DNA of 48,315 nucleotides. Source: a virus (taxonomy: Duplodnaviria; Heunggongvirae; Uroviricota; Caudoviricetes). Positions 36,099 to 40,310 of this stretch are shown here, one piece after another. Below the pieces are notes generated by a model that made no database searches, had not been told where the DNA came from, and saw only the letters and a list, made by a program, of their open reading frames with translations. The position numbers were made by a program, and so were the translations under genes. Where the stretch lies: positions 1 to 48,315 of the IMG/VR virus record IMGVR_UViG_2565956711_000009; one strand, written 5' to 3'. Each line of letters opens with the position of its first letter. The first letter of the stretch is position 1.

Positions 36099-36344
36099 TC
36101 AGGCGGCTGTCGATTCATTTTTAATTCGGTCAGGGTTTGCAGCCTGTAGTAGCCACTCTGCCGTAAACTGCCCTTTTGATGCGTCAGCCAAAAGCTGTGA
36201 ATAGTTGGTTTTCTCTGTGTACTCAGTGCGAGGCAACGCCGCGTTCTTTACCCACTTGTGAATAGCAACATTCGACAGACCACATAGGCGTGCCGCTGCG
36301 GTTTGTCCGCCTACAGCTTCGATTGCAAATTGCATTGGGTTCAT
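36099..36344 (-). CDS. cro: Cro-like HTH regulator
   Basis: 81 aa with HTH QTAAARLCGLSNVAIHKWVKN; divergent from cI. Confidence 0.7.
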   Translation of the reverse strand: MNPMQFAIEAVGGQTAAARLCGLSNVAIHKWVKNAALPRTEYTEKTNYSQLLADASKGQFTAEWLLQAANPDRIKNESTAA

Positions 36345-36428
36345 AGTGTTTTCCGTTAACTATATTAACTACGAGTTAAGGTTATATCTTAACTGACAGT
36401 TATGTCAACTCTAATTGATAATTAACAC
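36345..36428. promoter_or_regulatory. Immunity region: divergent pR / pRM promoters and operator palindromes
   Basis: Minus strand TTGACA-16-TATAAC (pR); + strand CTGACA-18-GATAAT ending 7 nt before cI ATG; palindrome GTTAAG-N7-CTTAAC at 36375-36393. Confidence 0.6.
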
Positions 36429-37205
36429 ATGGTTAAAAAAGACGATTTAAAAGAAGAATTCTCGAAGAGACTTCGCGCTGCATTGCTTGATGCTGGCGTG
36501 GGTGGGCGTGGGCAGGCTGGCAGGATCAGGGAAGCTATGAAGTCCCAAGGGATTGCTGTATCTGAGCCCGGGATCTGGAAGTGGCTTAACGCATCAGCAA
36601 TACCAGACCAAACCAATATCCTTGCACTTAGCCGCTGGCTTGGGGTTCGCCCTGAGTGGCTGGAATACGGAAGGAATGATCCTGAACCTGAACTGCACAG
36701 GGTATCATCCATCCCGCCTGAATCTGAGTGGGGAACTGTCGACGCTTGGGACAAAAATACCCCCCTACCTGACGATGAGGTGGAAGTACCGTTTCTGAAG
36801 GATATCGAGTTTGCGTGTGGTGATGGACGAGTACACGATGAGGATCACAATGGTTTTAAGCTCAGGTTCTCAAAGGCAACCCTCCGCCGCGTTGGAGCTA
36901 ACACAGATGGGTCTGGCATCCTGTGTTTCCCTGCTACTGGCGACAGCATGGAACCTGTGATACCGGATGGTACGACTGTAGCCGTCGATACGAACAACAA
37001 ACGCATAGTTGATGGGAAACTGTATGCCATTGGTCAGACAGATGGCGGGAATGGTCAACTCAAGCGCATTAAACAGCTGTATCGTAAGCCAGGTGGGAAG
37101 CTGATCATCCGCAGCTACAACAATGAGGCCTACCCTGATGAAGAAGCTGACATTGATGATGTTGAGATAATCGGCCGCCTCTTCTGGTACTCGGTACTGC
37201 TGTAG
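36429..37205 (+). CDS. cI: CI-type repressor (HTH + S24 peptidase domain)
   Basis: 258 aa; N-terminal HTH; C-terminal GDSMEP and LKRI catalytic motifs; no RBS, likely leaderless. Confidence 0.85.
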   Translation: MVKKDDLKEEFSKRLRAALLDAGVGGRGQAGRIREAMKSQGIAVSEPGIWKWLNASAIPDQTNILALSRWLGVRPEWLEYGRNDPEPELHRVSSIPPESEWGTVDAWDKNTPLPDDEVEVPFLKDIEFACGDGRVHDEDHNGFKLRFSKATLRRVGANTDGSGILCFPATGDSMEPVIPDGTTVAVDTNNKRIVDGKLYAIGQTDGGNGQLKRIKQLYRKPGGKLIIRSYNNEAYPDEEADIDDVEIIGRLFWYSVLL

Positions 37206-37321: not shown

Positions 37322-37906
37322 ATGAAAATGATTACAGGAATCGAAGCGCTAGCTTTACAGGCTACAGATATCCTTGCAGCCTCCAGGGCGGCGCAGCAAA
37401 TAGTTTCCCCACTTGCCAGAGCTAACTCGAGACTGGCACAGTCTGCCATGCCTGAAAATCCTGATGAAGTTAAGCACGCCTTAGATCGTGCCTCTATTGC
37501 GATTGCAGGTGTAGAGCGCAAATTAGTTGAGTGCAATGAAATAGTTAATTCATTAAACACACTTTCTGATGAAGATCTTCATTTCACCAATGAGTTTCTC
37601 ATTGAATTAAAGGTTAGGGCTGAAATGCTGACTGGGCACATAGAGAATTTACGCGATGTGTTTTCTCTAGTTGAAACGTCGAGCGCTTGGAAGCCTTACA
37701 TGCCATTGGTTTATGAAAAAAAACGCAAAGCAATTCGCTCTGTTTCTGATCTGCGAAATGCATATCTAAACATTGCTCTCCTGGCAGAGCAATTTGTCTC
37801 ACCCGTGCCGACCGTAAGCAGTAGTGTTGAGGGTAACTCAGAGGAATTTTCATCTGCACTCTCCGCATCACGCCAGCTGCTAAAAATCGGCTCGGAGTGG
37901 AGATAA
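37322..37906 (+). CDS. Unknown helical protein, first gene of cI-linked accessory operon
   Basis: 194 aa, no TM segments or recognised motifs; same strand as cI; stop overlaps next start (TAATG). Confidence 0.6.
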   Translation: MKMITGIEALALQATDILAASRAAQQIVSPLARANSRLAQSAMPENPDEVKHALDRASIAIAGVERKLVECNEIVNSLNTLSDEDLHFTNEFLIELKVRAEMLTGHIENLRDVFSLVETSSAWKPYMPLVYEKKRKAIRSVSDLRNAYLNIALLAEQFVSPVPTVSSSVEGNSEEFSSALSASRQLLKIGSEWR

Positions 37907-38316
37907 TGGCAAGAGTTAGTATCCATTCATCATTAAATAATTCGGCGTTTATACAAGGGCTTGCCAGAGAACTATCTCTTTATCTTAACGGCATCTCTTT
38001 ATCCGGACGCCTTGGAAGAAATGGCGGCTTTGAACGTAATAATTCAGCGCAAACATCCGGCATCCTCAAAATCCACTTCAAAGCACCAGGAGAAGGTTTT
38101 TGGACTGATGCTATGCGACAATCAACCAGAACGAGCAATAACTACATAGTATATGCGCGTCACTGGGATAAGGCTGATGCATTTCAAATCATCGCTGTGA
38201 TTGCACCAGACGCTCACGAAACGGCTGACGCACTCCTGCCCAGGATTATTGATATTACGGAACAAGATTTTCACTCGCTAAGTGAGAGTCAAATAGATCG
38301 CCTAGAACATTATTAA
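37906..38316 (+). CDS. Unknown protein with YoeB/RelE-like toxin-fold motifs
   Basis: 136 aa; segment KAPGEGFWTD...NNYIVYARHWDKADAFQIIAVIAPDAHE resembles recalled YoeB GFWSRRITEEHRLVYAV...LLIAACRYHY; unverified. Confidence 0.55.
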   Translation: MARVSIHSSLNNSAFIQGLARELSLYLNGISLSGRLGRNGGFERNNSAQTSGILKIHFKAPGEGFWTDAMRQSTRTSNNYIVYARHWDKADAFQIIAVIAPDAHETADALLPRIIDITEQDFHSLSESQIDRLEHY

Positions 38317-38340
38317 CCCGGCCACCGCGCCGGGTTTTTT
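38317..38340 (+). terminator. Rho-independent terminator ending the cI accessory operon
   Basis: CCCGGC-caccgc-GCCGGG followed by T6. Confidence 0.8.
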
Positions 38341-38344
38341 GTGC

Positions 38345-38554
38345 CTACTTCACAGCTTTACTACCCTTCCTGACTATCTCCGCCGCATCCCTGTTCACCC
38401 CCTTCCCTATCACGTTTCCCGTTTCCTTCCGGTACCGTTCCAGCTTGTCGATGATGTTTTGCTGGGTCATAGGTAAATCTGCCAGTGACAACTCCATGAC
38501 CGCCCGCCCCATGGCGTGAACCATCATGTTCACTCTTTCTTCATCCAAGTCCAT
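38345..38554 (-). CDS. Small hypothetical protein convergent with the cI operon
   Basis: 69 aa; strong AAGGAG RBS. Confidence 0.5.
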   Translation of the reverse strand: MDLDEERVNMMVHAMGRAVMELSLADLPMTQQNIIDKLERYRKETGNVIGKGVNRDAAEIVRKGSKAVK

Positions 38555-38620
38555 TACCCACTCCTTTTTGATGTTTTTTTCAGCATATCACGTGCCAAGC
38601 AAATCCATAACAAAACTAAA

Positions 38621-38705
38621 TTAACCAATAAATCATAACCTTAATAACCAACACAGAAATAATTAACCATTGGTTATTGACTGAAAATAACCATTAGTTA
38701 ATAAT
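38621..38705 (+). promoter_or_regulatory. pL-like early-left promoter with TAACC repeats and palindromic operator-like sites
   Basis: TTGACT(38677-38682)-17-AATAAT(38700-38705); palindromes TAACCA-T-TGGTTA (38664-38676) and TAACCA-T-TAGTTA (38688-38700); five same-orientation TAACC copies. Confidence 0.5.
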
Positions 38706-38751
38706 CAATCCATCGAAACGAAACATCGACAGCTGAGCGAAGTTAGCCAGC

Positions 38752-38782
38752 GGCGGACAGCAAGTCGCCTGCTTTTTAACAA
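38752..38782 (+). promoter_or_regulatory. Leader hairpin followed by rrn-type boxA-like element
   Basis: Hairpin GGCGGAC-agcaa-GTCGCC then TGCTTTTTAACAA (one mismatch to rrn boxA TGCTCTTTAACAA). Confidence 0.4.
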
Positions 38783-39006
38783 CATGCAAAGTCGGAACAG
38801 CACTCAGTAATCCTGTTTAGACCCCAACGTACAAATTCGGCGCAGCACCGGGCGCGATCCGGTCGGTGTGAGGCTACCACCTCGCGAGAGCGATAAAGGC
38901 GTGGGAACGGGCAACACTGGCGGGATGAGAGGTGCGAAGCGCAAACAGATTTATTCCAGTCCATTCGAAGTTGAGTGGGCTGGGCTGAATCACAAGAGGA
39001 TTTTTT

Positions 39007-39219
39007 ATGACTCAGACATACATTCCGGCGTGTTTAAGAGACCTTCCTAAGAAGCGTCAGAAGCCACGCAAACAGGCGATTAAAGAAGCGCAAGTGGAAG
39101 TTCTGAATAAGGCAATCGCATCGATAAAAGACGATATGCGTGCGTTCAAAACAGAAGAGCAGCGTCGCGGTCATTACCAGGCGATCAGCACACTCTCACA
39201 GATTCGTGATGAGTTGTAG
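39007..39219 (+). CDS. Small basic protein, first gene of early-left operon
   Basis: 70 aa with basic patch KKRQKPRKQ; AAGAGGA RBS. Confidence 0.5.
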   Translation: MTQTYIPACLRDLPKKRQKPRKQAIKEAQVEVLNKAIASIKDDMRAFKTEEQRRGHYQAISTLSQIRDEL

Positions 39220-39498: not shown

Positions 39499-40167
39499 AT
39501 GATTCGTCTTAACAACGAAATTAAAAATCAGCTATGCCATAACCTGCTTCTCGCATCCCCATTGTTTGAGAAAGCGAAAGCTGCGGTTAATGAGAGGGCG
39601 AAAATTGTTGAAGAAATTCGACAGGCATTGCTCAAGCAGGAAAACACTAGCGATGAGCAAATAACTAAGGCTCGGGAAGATTTCAAAGATAACTCCTTCA
39701 TCAAGATGCAGGTCGGCGCTAAAACTGCAACTTTAAAGGTCATTATTAATGGTGAGTATCACGAATTAGCCAGGAACGGTTTGGATCATCGCTATCGCCA
39801 CCGTGGAAAACATATTGGTAAGCACGATCTTGAAAGCGACCTGTTCTTCGGAGCTTCCTTCGCGCCTGTAATTGATTCGGGTTTCGTTCCTGAAAGTTAC
39901 AGCACGCTGAAGAAAGTTGGAAAATTACACGACCGACTCACTGAATCGACGGTAACCATCAACGTTCTTTACGATGAAGTTGATGCCTTCCAATTGCAGG
40001 TTAAAGGTGCTCTAACCAAAGTCTCAACTGTTAAAAAACTGGCTGAGATGTGGCCTGAGGCAGTGCCATATTTGCCTGAGGTGGAACGCCGTGAAGCGAC
40101 CAGCACCGCACTTGCCATTCCCGTTGAAACGCTAAACGCCCTTTGCGGCATACCAAAGAATGAATGA
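39499..40167 (+). CDS. Hypothetical protein, unknown function
   Basis: 222 aa; GAGGG RBS; followed by terminator. Confidence 0.55.
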   Translation: MIRLNNEIKNQLCHNLLLASPLFEKAKAAVNERAKIVEEIRQALLKQENTSDEQITKAREDFKDNSFIKMQVGAKTATLKVIINGEYHELARNGLDHRYRHRGKHIGKHDLESDLFFGASFAPVIDSGFVPESYSTLKKVGKLHDRLTESTVTINVLYDEVDAFQLQVKGALTKVSTVKKLAEMWPEAVPYLPEVERREATSTALAIPVETLNALCGIPKNE

Positions 40168-40187
40168 CCCGCTCCGGCGGGTTTTTT
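40168..40187 (+). terminator. Rho-independent terminator
   Basis: CCCGC-tccg-GCGGG followed by T6. Confidence 0.75.
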
Positions 40188-40310
40188 ATCGGCCATACAT
40201 AGGCAGATTTTCGAGTCTGCCCATTTATGACAATCGGCGGTCATCCACCGCCCATAAGCGCAGAAGTCTTTGTTAACGTTCAGCGGCGCGGCTTAAGCGC
40301 GGAGATGATT

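Follow-up and report, generated by a model that had tools for sequence, protein, structure and literature searches.

Upstream of the early-left operon of this phage, a promoter set among TAACC repeats is followed closely by a hairpin and a boxA-like sequence, and the tract raises the question of which protein recognises the repeats and whether the hairpin and boxA form an rrn-type leader that confers antitermination without an N protein, as a sequence-only reading had proposed. Comparison with related phages leads us to assign the window (the whole stretch of DNA analysed, 48,315 nucleotides) to a temperate lambdoid phage of the phi80 kind and to read its positions 38619-38790 as OL and pL together with the initial 70 nt of the early-left leader, with a probability of about 0.75; that the stretch comprises OL, pL and boxA, taken on its own, is highly probable. 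Its immunity specificity is distinct from that of phi80. The control region is itself ordinary in kind, and the leader continues into a widespread, apparently uncatalogued structured RNA.

The pL promoter and its phi80 counterpart

Over positions 38318-38926 the window is 86% identical at the nucleotide level to phi80 (GenBank JX871397, X13065 and M11919; phi80 and HK639 features are those of the GenBank annotation only), whose counterpart region carries an annotated pL, three CI operators, a ‘nutL boxA’ and a ‘nutL core’, and whose leader fragment is labelled ‘nutL regulatory signal’ in M11919. The promoter hexamers, the three operator positions and boxA align base for base, and over the leader, up to 38926, identity is 83-86% with an identical boxA, as in a phi80-type nutL. 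Some E. coli prophages are 100% identical to the window from cII via OL to the end of boxA.

The pL promoter (38677..38705, + strand) was recovered by a promoter scan exactly as the sequence-only reading had placed it, with a −35 hexamer TTGACT (38677-38682), a 17-bp spacer and a −10 hexamer AATAAT (38700-38705) that agree with the consensus at 10/12 positions. Such a match is by itself not significant (4 promoter-like sites seen in 3.8 kb vs 5.5 expected), and the assignment to a pL-type promoter of the early-left operon, also made in that reading, is supported by orthology, the hexamers coinciding base for base with the −35 and −10 of annotated phi80 pL and with the annotated HK225 promoter. 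Transcription is inferred to start near A38712. The transcript start CAUCGAAACGAAACAUCGA (38711..38729, + strand) is invariant, exact matching having retrieved it from at least 120 IMG/VR loci, and it is common to leaders with three different downstream antitermination modules.

Operators and repressor specificity

Five same-strand copies of TAACC, at 38622, 38636, 38645, 38664 and 38688, make OL the sole place in the window with five copies in 80 bp, confirming the earlier count; the 48.3 kb contain 52 copies on that strand, which gives an expectation of 0.086 per 80 bp, and the Poisson probability of five is ~4e-8 per such interval, or ~2e-5 when corrected. The two 13-bp palindromes described earlier are present and, as had been supposed, have the character of operators, aligning with annotated phi80 OL2 and OL1. 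OL2 (38664..38682, + strand) is a 19-bp site that overlaps the −35, with the core palindrome TAACCATTGGTTA at 38664-38676, located by projection of the phi80 CI operator and by an exact match to TAAC-N5-GTTA; OL1 (38687..38705, + strand), located by phi80 operator alignment and by a match to the same motif, covers the spacer and the −10, with the core TAACCATTAGTTA at 38688-38700. Their centres lie 24 bp apart, a distance equal to that between lambda OL1 and OL2. Farther upstream, an OL3-like cluster (38619..38650, + strand) of three same-orientation half-sites [A/T]TAACC, at the first three of the above positions, aligns with annotated phi80 OL3, itself built as the direct repeat AATCAACA-N4-AATCAACA; phi80 has five same-orientation ATC[C/A]AC half-sites at positions equivalent to those of the window.

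Whereas the palindromes had been thought to differ from the GTTAAG-N7-CTTAAC element at pR/pRM, leaving their binder unclear, TAAC-N5-GTTA has exactly five matches in the 48 kb (0.41 expected), two in OL and three in OR, and the GTTAAG-N7-CTTAAC element (36375-36393) is formed by the facing arms of two neighbouring OR sites. OR (36366..36435) lies between cro (36099-36344, − strand) and cI (36429..37205, + strand), its operators at 36366-78, 36390-402 and 36423-35 being spaced 24 and 33 bp apart. Both spacings recur in phi80 OR in reversed order, the 24-bp pair of the window being on the cro side. The CI protein has an S24 peptidase C-terminal domain, the last ~165 aa being ~84% identical to phi80 CI, and an N-terminal ~90 aa unrelated to it; Cro likewise differs from phi80 Cro. 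Among loci with enough upstream sequence to be taken in, operator type and CI N-terminal domain are perfectly linked: all TAACC-type OL loci (5/5, window included) have the N-terminal domain of this CI at 96.6-100% identity, all ATC[C/A]AC-type OL loci (4/4) have that of phi80 CI, and there is no crossing between types. The locus has three features that mark a lambdoid OL, namely at least two related, partly palindromic sites overlapping the −35/−10 of an early promoter, a recognition motif that recurs at OR between cI and cro, and an operator sequence that co-varies among relatives with the DNA-binding domain of the repressor.

Orthology, motif distribution and this linkage identify the TAACC palindromes as very probable operators of the phage’s own CI, and Cro presumably uses the TAAC-N5-GTTA operators too. 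CI dimers would bind the 13-bp TAAC-N5-GTTA cores at OL1, across the spacer and −10, and at OL2, which abuts and overlaps the −35, with the half-site repeats farther upstream serving as the OL3-like cluster, and their binding would block RNA polymerase in the lysogen. The 69-aa protein encoded convergently with the cI operon (38345..38554, − strand), previously put forward as a possible binder of the palindromes, is a natural rival, since its gene adjoins OL and must be transcribed from a promoter at or close to the OL3-like repeats. What excludes it is its 100% identity to an unannotated phi80 ORF, the phi80 operators being of the ATC[C/A]AC type, and in a locus that does have TAACC operators (L095) the protein is only 48% identical. 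The gene is present in only some loci of each leader class, and the perfect correspondence of operator type with the CI N-terminal domain likewise speaks against recognition of the repeats by any regulator other than CI, an extremely improbable alternative. What is new in OL/pL itself is immunity specificity only, a TAAC-N5-GTTA core paired with a new CI DNA-binding domain, and the placement of that domain on a phi80-type C-terminal domain amounts to a natural specificity swap for the study of repressor-operator recognition.

The leader, its structured RNA and proposed early antitermination

Downstream of the start, minimum free energy folding gives a hairpin H1 (38732..38751, + strand), which in relatives has an alternative GCGGC...GCCGC version with compensatory changes, and folding and pair counts give a second, H2 (38752..38769, + strand; GGCGGAC-AGCAA-GUCGCC, dG −5.7 kcal/mol), which abuts boxA. 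With the start near A38712, H2 lies at about +41, in agreement with the hairpin noted earlier some 40 nt into the transcript. Across 24 distinct leaders 97% of H2 cells are paired, with compensatory changes in 2/6 pairs, whereas slid controls of the combined H1 and H2 structure give 18-46%. The hairpin is thus a conserved, covarying RNA helix, and it is not rrn-specific: a covarying hairpin of the H2 type also lies 5' of boxA in leaders with a classic boxB and N gene, and lambda nutL has CACC-AUGAA-GGUG directly 5' of its boxA. Because the hairpin-boxA order is found in N/nut leaders and in lambda nutL, it does not, contrary to the first interpretation, set an rrn-like leader apart from a lambda-like one.

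Directly after H2 comes TGCTTTTTAACAA (38770-38782), a 12/13 match to rrn boxA UGCUCUUUAACAA, as reported before. This boxA (UGCUUUUUAACAA, + strand) is identical to the phi80 ‘nutL boxA’ over its 9 annotated bases, and the family consensus GCUCUUUAACAA is the same as that of rrn, most relatives matching it perfectly. Measured against the published consensus GYTCTTTAANA (PMC5725501), the window agrees at 10/11 positions, U replacing C at position 4, and for that reason its boxA may be a weak NusB/E site. The element, on the sense strand, keeps a constant spacing to the structured RNA in 37/37 aligned relatives and is likewise at a fixed spacing in the 52 distinct 5' leaders. Comparison with the leaders of related phages, which the sequence-only reading had called for, thus shows boxA to be real and conserved, its position being constant across more than 150 of them. 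Neither in the window nor in any other locus was boxA or the structured RNA found a second time, as a nutR analogue would require. A terminator scan does flag H2 and its tail (38752-38769 plus tail), as if GGCGGAC...GUCGCC followed by UGCUUUUUAA were a leader attenuator or intrinsic terminator with no part in antitermination; that is very improbable, the stem being weak (a bulged 6-bp helix, −5.7 kcal/mol), the U-run beginning 3 nt past it, and the tail being GCUCUUUAACAA or GCUCAUUAACAA in most relatives, so that the conserved thing is boxA and not a U-tract.

The more valuable result lies just beyond the tract first described, in the invariable coupling of boxA to a covariation-supported RNA. 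Past boxA, a nearly invariant and apparently single-stranded tract AAAGUCGGAACAGCA (38788..38802, + strand) is kept in phage loci of Escherichia, Klebsiella, Providencia and Edwardsiella, its possible local pairing being lost where the partner changes. It is followed by a conserved 113-nt multi-helix RNA (38812..38924, + strand), which is closed by a long-range helix (38812-17 with 38919-24) and further comprises a CCC/GGG helix (38823-25 with 38909-11), a small hairpin P1 with an A-rich loop (38828-39, the phi80 ‘nutL core’), P2 (38840-74) and P3, a hairpin with a GAGA loop (38880-99). RNAalifold and pair counts on 37 sequences put 91% of cells in pairs, compared with 36-47% in slid controls, and found 127 double-change cells as against 6-35; the observed score was reached by 0/500 shuffles, and covariation extends to four helices. 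A local AACAG/CUGUU hairpin after boxA was dropped in favour of the long-range helix, which compensatory changes keep in Edwardsiella-type sequences, and ORFs that overlap the RNA (e.g., 38868-39050) were rejected as genes because conservation tracks base-pairing and not reading frame. Where lambda would have boxB, a hairpin with a 5-bp stem and a purine-rich pentaloop about 8-15 nt 3' of boxA, there is none, the nearest conserved A-rich-loop hairpin being P1, 45 nt on; P1 lies within the larger fold and in the window has a U-U mismatch, while relatives of the classic type do carry an adjacent boxB.

The RNA has more than 150 relatives, Stx2 phages among them, and is widespread in enterobacterial temperate phages and prophages of Escherichia, Klebsiella, Providencia and Edwardsiella. 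It sits between cI and the early-left genes in each annotated phage checked (phi80, HK225, P13374, Klebsiella ST13-OXA48phi12.2, Providencia PSTCR7lys and Edwardsiella Edno5) and alternates, on the same 5' leader, with a classic boxA-boxB plus N gene or with an HK639 putL-like RNA. Rfam gave no relevant match for the whole window at gathering thresholds, for 38560-39100 at E<=10, or for the phi80, HK639 and HK225 loci, and has no nut or put family. A scan of genome contigs with the 15-mer AAAGTCGGAACAGCA returned nearly all chance matches in unrelated phyla, and the 11 loci with it that passed the element pattern were left out of the alignments by eye. Among the carriers are the Stx2 phage from the O104:H4 outbreak of 2011 and Stx2-converting phages in whose early region no N gene is detected or annotated; if the RNA is an antitermination signal, it would control early gene expression, and hence the outcome of induction, in medically relevant prophages.

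BoxA is a binding element for NusB-NusE. After induction, transcription would start near 38712 and the transcript would fold into the two small conserved hairpins, leaving boxA exposed; boxA would then open a phi80-type nutL signal that the structured RNA completes, and the two would render RNA polymerase resistant to the terminators of the operon, the first strong one of which is a tL-like intrinsic terminator inside the early-left operon (40166..40190, + strand; terminator scan), with a 7-bp stem of 5 GC pairs followed by TTTTAT. That boxA and the structured RNA together act as an antitermination signal is, on balance, probable. The first gene of the operon (39007..39219, + strand), whose ribosome-binding site is directly preceded by a very stable hairpin (38948..38991, + strand; dG −25.4 kcal/mol, z = −5.2) with homologues in relatives, encodes a 70-aa basic protein (pI 9.8) that begins with CLRDLPKKRQKPRKQAIK, an invariant N-terminal motif. 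This product is not a recognisable N, having no Pfam, PHROG-function or NCBIfam annotation and no detectable likeness to the N of phi80 or to the lambda N family, and it has only 9 homologue clusters in a large protein database; its gene also occurs 3' of HK639-type put leaders, and a proline stands amid its basic stretch. It is the best, if tentative, candidate for an N analogue involved in antitermination.

A mechanism driven by RNA, in which boxA and the 113-nt RNA work with host Nus factors only, a function like that of HK022/HK639 put RNA yet linked to boxA, would suit the failure of six-frame searches (E<=1, with limited sensitivity to unknown N families) to find a lambda/P22-type or phi80-type N in the window, where phrog_271 and the N-HMM had no match either. 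In the whole early region of P13374, an Stx2 phage with the same RNA, no known N family was found either, ORF26 of that phage, annotated ‘antitermination’, being an ORF6N/antirepressor-type protein and not an N. No lambda-N-family gene lies within 4 kb downstream in 122/143 RNA-bearing loci, whose first genes are diverse and often acidic; first genes are shared between structured-RNA and HK639-put-type leaders, and only the classic boxA-boxB class has an N gene of its own. The RNA, with its four covarying helices, is also far more elaborate than boxB, and P1 does not covary with N type, covariation with the arginine-rich motif that the N-like proteins encoded downstream carry having been rejected when CGCA-AAAA-UGCG proved to occur with two different motifs. 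Against this, phi80 has an N gene and GenBank marks its ‘nutL’ as an N-utilisation signal, and at least four N-like lineages lie immediately 3' of this RNA where no alternative boxB candidate is present, which argues for use of the RNA by N in the phages concerned; genes of the lambda N family come directly after it in Providencia-, Edwardsiella- and further lineages. Rapid evolution, moreover, can hide N proteins from searches (phi80 N is of ‘unknown function’ in PHROGs), and neither in sequence nor in structure does the RNA resemble HK639 put. Action with host factors alone is accordingly doubtful, and a small phage protein that completes the complex seems somewhat more likely than none; that the boxA-linked 113-nt RNA and AAAGUCGGAACAGCA form a third lambdoid early antitermination signal, beside N/nut and put, that operates without N is similarly an unlikely, if intriguing, possibility.

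The original proposal, spelled out as a leader of the rrn type that consists of just the hairpin and boxA and loads NusB/E/A/G with SuhB and S4 for N-independent antitermination, draws on the identity of the family boxA consensus GCUCUUUAACAA with that of rrn, on the conserved hairpin 5' of boxA and on the failure to find an N homologue. We consider it improbable. In many relatives, as in lambda nutL, the hairpin-boxA unit stands ahead of a classic boxB and an N gene; the window boxA is off consensus at position 4; and the model leaves out of account the conserved RNA found after boxA, at constant spacing, in every case. Complexes of the rrn type act against Rho-dependent termination rather than strong intrinsic terminators, and terminators of the latter kind are present in the early-left operon.

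Relation to known systems

The likeness to rrn leaders lies in the succession of a hairpin and a boxA 12/13 identical to UGCUCUUUAACAA, with an identical family consensus. The window leader differs in that its hairpin is homologous to the phage nutL leader hairpin, in the strong intrinsic terminators of its operon and in the phage-specific structured RNA always found after boxA; no boxC was identified in it.

With lambda it shares the order of cI, accessory genes, terminator, OL/pL, leader and early-left operon, a pair of operators spaced by 24 bp across the promoter, whose motif recurs at OR, the small hairpin immediately 5' of boxA, a leader boxA at about +60 and terminators downstream. Unlike lambda, the window has neither a boxB in the roughly 10 nt next to boxA nor a boxC-like GGUGUGUG, and it has no known N homologue and no nutR; its boxA is of the rrn type, that of lambda being CGCUCUUA, and a 113-nt multi-helix RNA follows it.

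As in HK022 and HK639, a structured RNA lies within the pL leader, and in HK639 a putL-like RNA is equally placed on the same 5' leader (CAUCGAAACGAAACAUCGA and H1), with one copy per genome and with downstream first genes that are interchangeable between the two leader types. The put RNA has two stems (~70 nt), carries no boxA and acts without Nus factors (PMC9378689). The window RNA has no sequence similarity to that two-stem, boxA-less RNA that follows pL, the two being alternative modules: the HK639 leader diverges from that of the window before boxA and its fold differs, and in the window family boxA invariably accompanies the RNA, which folds into a closed multi-helix junction.

The closest relative is phi80. 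Differences begin with the half-site, ATC[C/A]AC in phi80 and [A/T]TAACC here, and extend to the CI N-terminal domain and Cro, which are unrelated or only 39% identical, and to the mirrored OR layout; homology stops at 38926, beyond which the window lacks the phi80 N gene and has as its first gene that of the 70-aa protein, shared with HK225. The two phages have in common the −35 and −10, the three operator sites and the five same-orientation half-sites, all equally placed, an identical leader start, hairpins and boxA, the 69-aa gene upstream with its fully identical product, and the CI C-terminal domain. They also share the structured RNA, down to the position of the ‘nutL core’ hairpin, whose stem is altered, P1 being CGUA/UUCG in the window and CACG/CGUG in phi80.

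Promoter and gene context of the early-left region

From 38318 to 38926 the window is 86% identical to phage phi80, whose GenBank record annotates in the homologous stretch three CI operators (OL1-3), the -35 and -10 hexamers of the early-left promoter pL, a "nutL boxA" and a "nutL core"; an older phi80 record labels the leader "nutL regulatory signal". The features proposed by the sequence-only reading (promoter, two palindromes, five TAACC copies, hairpin and boxA) were all recovered by scans and pattern searches, and its identification of three of them is borne out by the alignment. The promoter TTGACT-17-AATAAT (38677-38705), matching 10 of 12 positions in a promoter scan, has its hexamers exactly where those of phi80 pL align (38677-82 and 38700-05), and this homology is what makes it credible, the consensus match by itself being not above chance (4 promoter-like sites in the scan versus 5.5 expected). 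Since phi80 OL1, OL2 and OL3 align to 38687-705, 38664-682 and 38619-638, the palindromes TAACCATTGGTTA (38664-38676) and TAACCATTAGTTA (38688-38700) coincide with annotated OL2 and OL1, respectively, as proposed for operators, and the boxA TGCTTTTTAACAA (38770-38782) is identical to that of phi80 where the latter aligns, at 38770-78. In place of the five same-orientation ATC[C/A]AC half-sites of phi80, the window has five same-strand TAACC copies (38622, 38636, 38645, 38664 and 38688). Judged from the aligned sequences, the OL architecture is kept and the recognition sequence alone swapped, making this a predicted phi80-type OL/pL/nutL region with a new immunity specificity.

Upstream, the order is cI (36429-37205, with an S24 peptidase domain), two accessory genes, a strong terminator (38315-38345) and then OL/pL, with cro (36099-36344) and a cII-like gene diverging from cI. 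Downstream is a typical lambdoid early-left operon with Kil, Gam, Bet, Exo, Xis and Int. Strong intrinsic terminators lie within it, beginning with one at 40166-40190 that is directly preceded by a gene of the Nmad5 (nucleotide-modification-associated) family (39499-40167). The cI operon includes, within 37322-38316, a YafO-toxin-like gene (37897-38316, Pfam PF13957), overlapped and preceded by a 194-aa ORF without family match; the two take the place of lambda rexAB, possibly as a toxin-antitoxin or defence moron.

Operators and their predicted binder

TAACC occurs 52 times in 48.3 kb, or 0.086 expected per 80 bp, and the early-left operators are the sole place in the window with five copies in 80 bp (corrected P ~2e-5). 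The OL palindromes had been considered distinct from the motif at OR, with their binder unclear. That distinction does not hold: a pattern search of the whole window for TAAC-N5-GTTA gives five matches and no more (0.41 expected), two at OL and three at OR (36366, 36390 and 36423), and GTTAAG-N7-CTTAAC (36375-36393) combines the first OR site's right arm with the left arm of the second, so that OL and OR have one motif in common. Centres are 24 bp apart for OL1-OL2 and for the first two OR sites, the lambda OL1-OL2 spacing.

CI is 66% identical to phi80 CI overall and ~84% over the C-terminal ~165 residues, with the N-terminal ~90 residues unrelated, and Cro is only 39% identical to phi80 Cro over the helix-turn-helix. 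The comparison of operators and CI drew on at least 120 IMG/VR loci retrieved by the conserved leader start, together with reference phage loci and the window. Among the matches listed, the reference phages and the window, where the upstream sequence is long enough, operator type follows the CI N-terminal domain without exception: the TAACC-type OL of the window and of four loci among those matches always comes with the window's domain (96.6-100% identity), and every phi80-type OL listed with that of phi80. E. coli prophages are 100% identical to the window from cII through OL up to the end of boxA. We conclude that the TAACC sites are predicted operators of the phage's own CI and that a putatively new immunity type is carried on a phi80 scaffold.

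The OR layout (36366-36435), with spacings of 24 then 33 bp from the cro side, mirrors that of phi80 (33 then 24). Because the third OR site extends over the start codon of cI, the cI mRNA may be leaderless and come from a pRM-like promoter, CTGACA-18-GATAAT, at 36393-36422. The 69-aa product of a minus-strand gene (38345-38554, phrog_3975) was rejected as specificity determinant, because all 69 residues are the same in phi80 while a TAACC-type locus has a version just 48% identical. This gene is convergent with the cI operon and begins ~65 bp away from the OL3-like repeats; it matches an unannotated ORF of the phi80 locus (L001 2531-2737) at 100% identity, and within each leader class some loci have it and others do not.

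Leader hairpin, boxA and a structured RNA

A weak hairpin, H2 (38752-38769, -5.7 kcal/mol), abuts boxA. The H2 pairing holds in 97% of cells across 24 distinct leaders, with compensatory changes in 2 of 6 pairs, against 18-46% pairing in a control in which the structure of H2 and the preceding hairpin H1 (38732-38751) was slid. The boxA agrees with the published consensus GYTCTTTAANA (PMC5725501) at 10 of 11 positions, and most relatives match it perfectly. The hairpin-then-boxA order was earlier taken as diagnostic of rrn leaders, but in many relatives the H2-boxA unit also stands before an adjacent classic boxB and a lambda-family N gene (phrog_271), and lambda nutL, which reads CACC-AUGAA-GGUG-A-CGCUCUUA, likewise has a hairpin; the order is therefore an ordinary trait of phage nutL leaders and no sign of rrn-type, N-independent action.

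Beyond boxA, and outside the stretch originally singled out, come a nearly invariant tract, AAAGUCGGAACAGCA (38788-38802), and a 113-nt structured RNA (38812-38924) for which Rfam gave no match. Many Stx2a phages, P13374 of the O104:H4 outbreak among them, carry it at ~78% conservation in their untranslated pL leaders, and it is also present in HK225 and in phages of Klebsiella, Providencia and Edwardsiella, in each case lying between cI and the early-left genes. With a second IMG/VR scan the count rose to at least 159 phage or prophage loci, one copy per locus. RNAalifold on 37 diverse sequences predicts a long-range closing helix, a CCC/GGG helix, a small hairpin P1 with an A-rich loop, corresponding to the phi80 "nutL core", and a long hairpin P2; P3, a variable GAGA-loop hairpin, was placed by hand from compensatory changes in the alignment. 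Covariation is strong: by pair counting, 91% of cells are paired versus 36-47% with slid partners, both sides change in 127 cells versus 6-35, and none of 500 shuffles scored as high. The long-range helix is wholly rebuilt in Edwardsiella-type sequences (CUGUU/GGCAG to GUAAC/GUUAC). Mosaic joints fall exactly at module borders, at 38782, where the identity of E. coli prophages with the window runs to the final boxA base, and at 38926, where phi80 homology ends with the last base of the RNA. This boxA-linked RNA is the part deserving further study.

Antitermination and comparison with phi80

Our tentative reading (probability about 0.35) is that antitermination is completed by a phage protein, with the product of the first early-left gene (39007-39219) as best candidate. 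This 70-aa basic protein (pI 9.8), a candidate N analogue, bears no resemblance to any N in a comparison with phi80 N and the lambda-N family. Its N-terminal CLRDLPKKRQKPRKQAIK is invariant even among 53-57% identical homologues, the protein belongs to a very narrow family, with 9 clusters in a database of 5.8 billion proteins, and its gene always comes first after a structured-RNA leader or an HK639-type put leader. Just 5' of its ribosome-binding site lies a very stable hairpin (38948-38991; dG -25.4 kcal/mol, z -5.2), which may be a processing or translational-control element; Klebsiella and Providencia loci have homologues with altered stems, and so does the HK639 "putL-like" feature at its 3' end.

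That the RNA and Nus factors suffice, independently of N, we regard as only slightly less probable. In favour of this reading, a six-frame search found neither a lambda/P22-type nor a phi80-type N in the window or the 32-kb P13374 early region, and a lambda-family N is absent within 4 kb downstream in 122 of 143 loci with the structured RNA. This RNA also alternates, on one 5' leader, with the classic boxA-boxB and N module and with the HK639 putL-like RNA, and the structured-RNA and put classes have downstream first genes in common. Phi80, however, does have an N gene, and four or more N-like lineages (N-terminal motifs such as MNSKQKRRAWRHERR; C-terminal ...FGVTAR) are encoded right after the structured RNA without another boxB candidate. 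Detection of N proteins is moreover difficult, phi80 N itself being listed as of "unknown function" in PHROGs. No covariation was seen between P1 and N type. Antitermination by the hairpin and boxA alone, the model of the sequence-only reading, is improbable.

In a comparison with phi80 (L001 3094-3300), homologues of phi80 N sit behind classic boxA-boxB leaders in two IMG/VR loci (L062 and L087), and downstream of the structured RNA phi80 keeps of such a leader just the 3' portion (GGGAUGUGGUGAAGGGUUCAUGG...); phi80 hence gives the impression of a hybrid between two antitermination modules.
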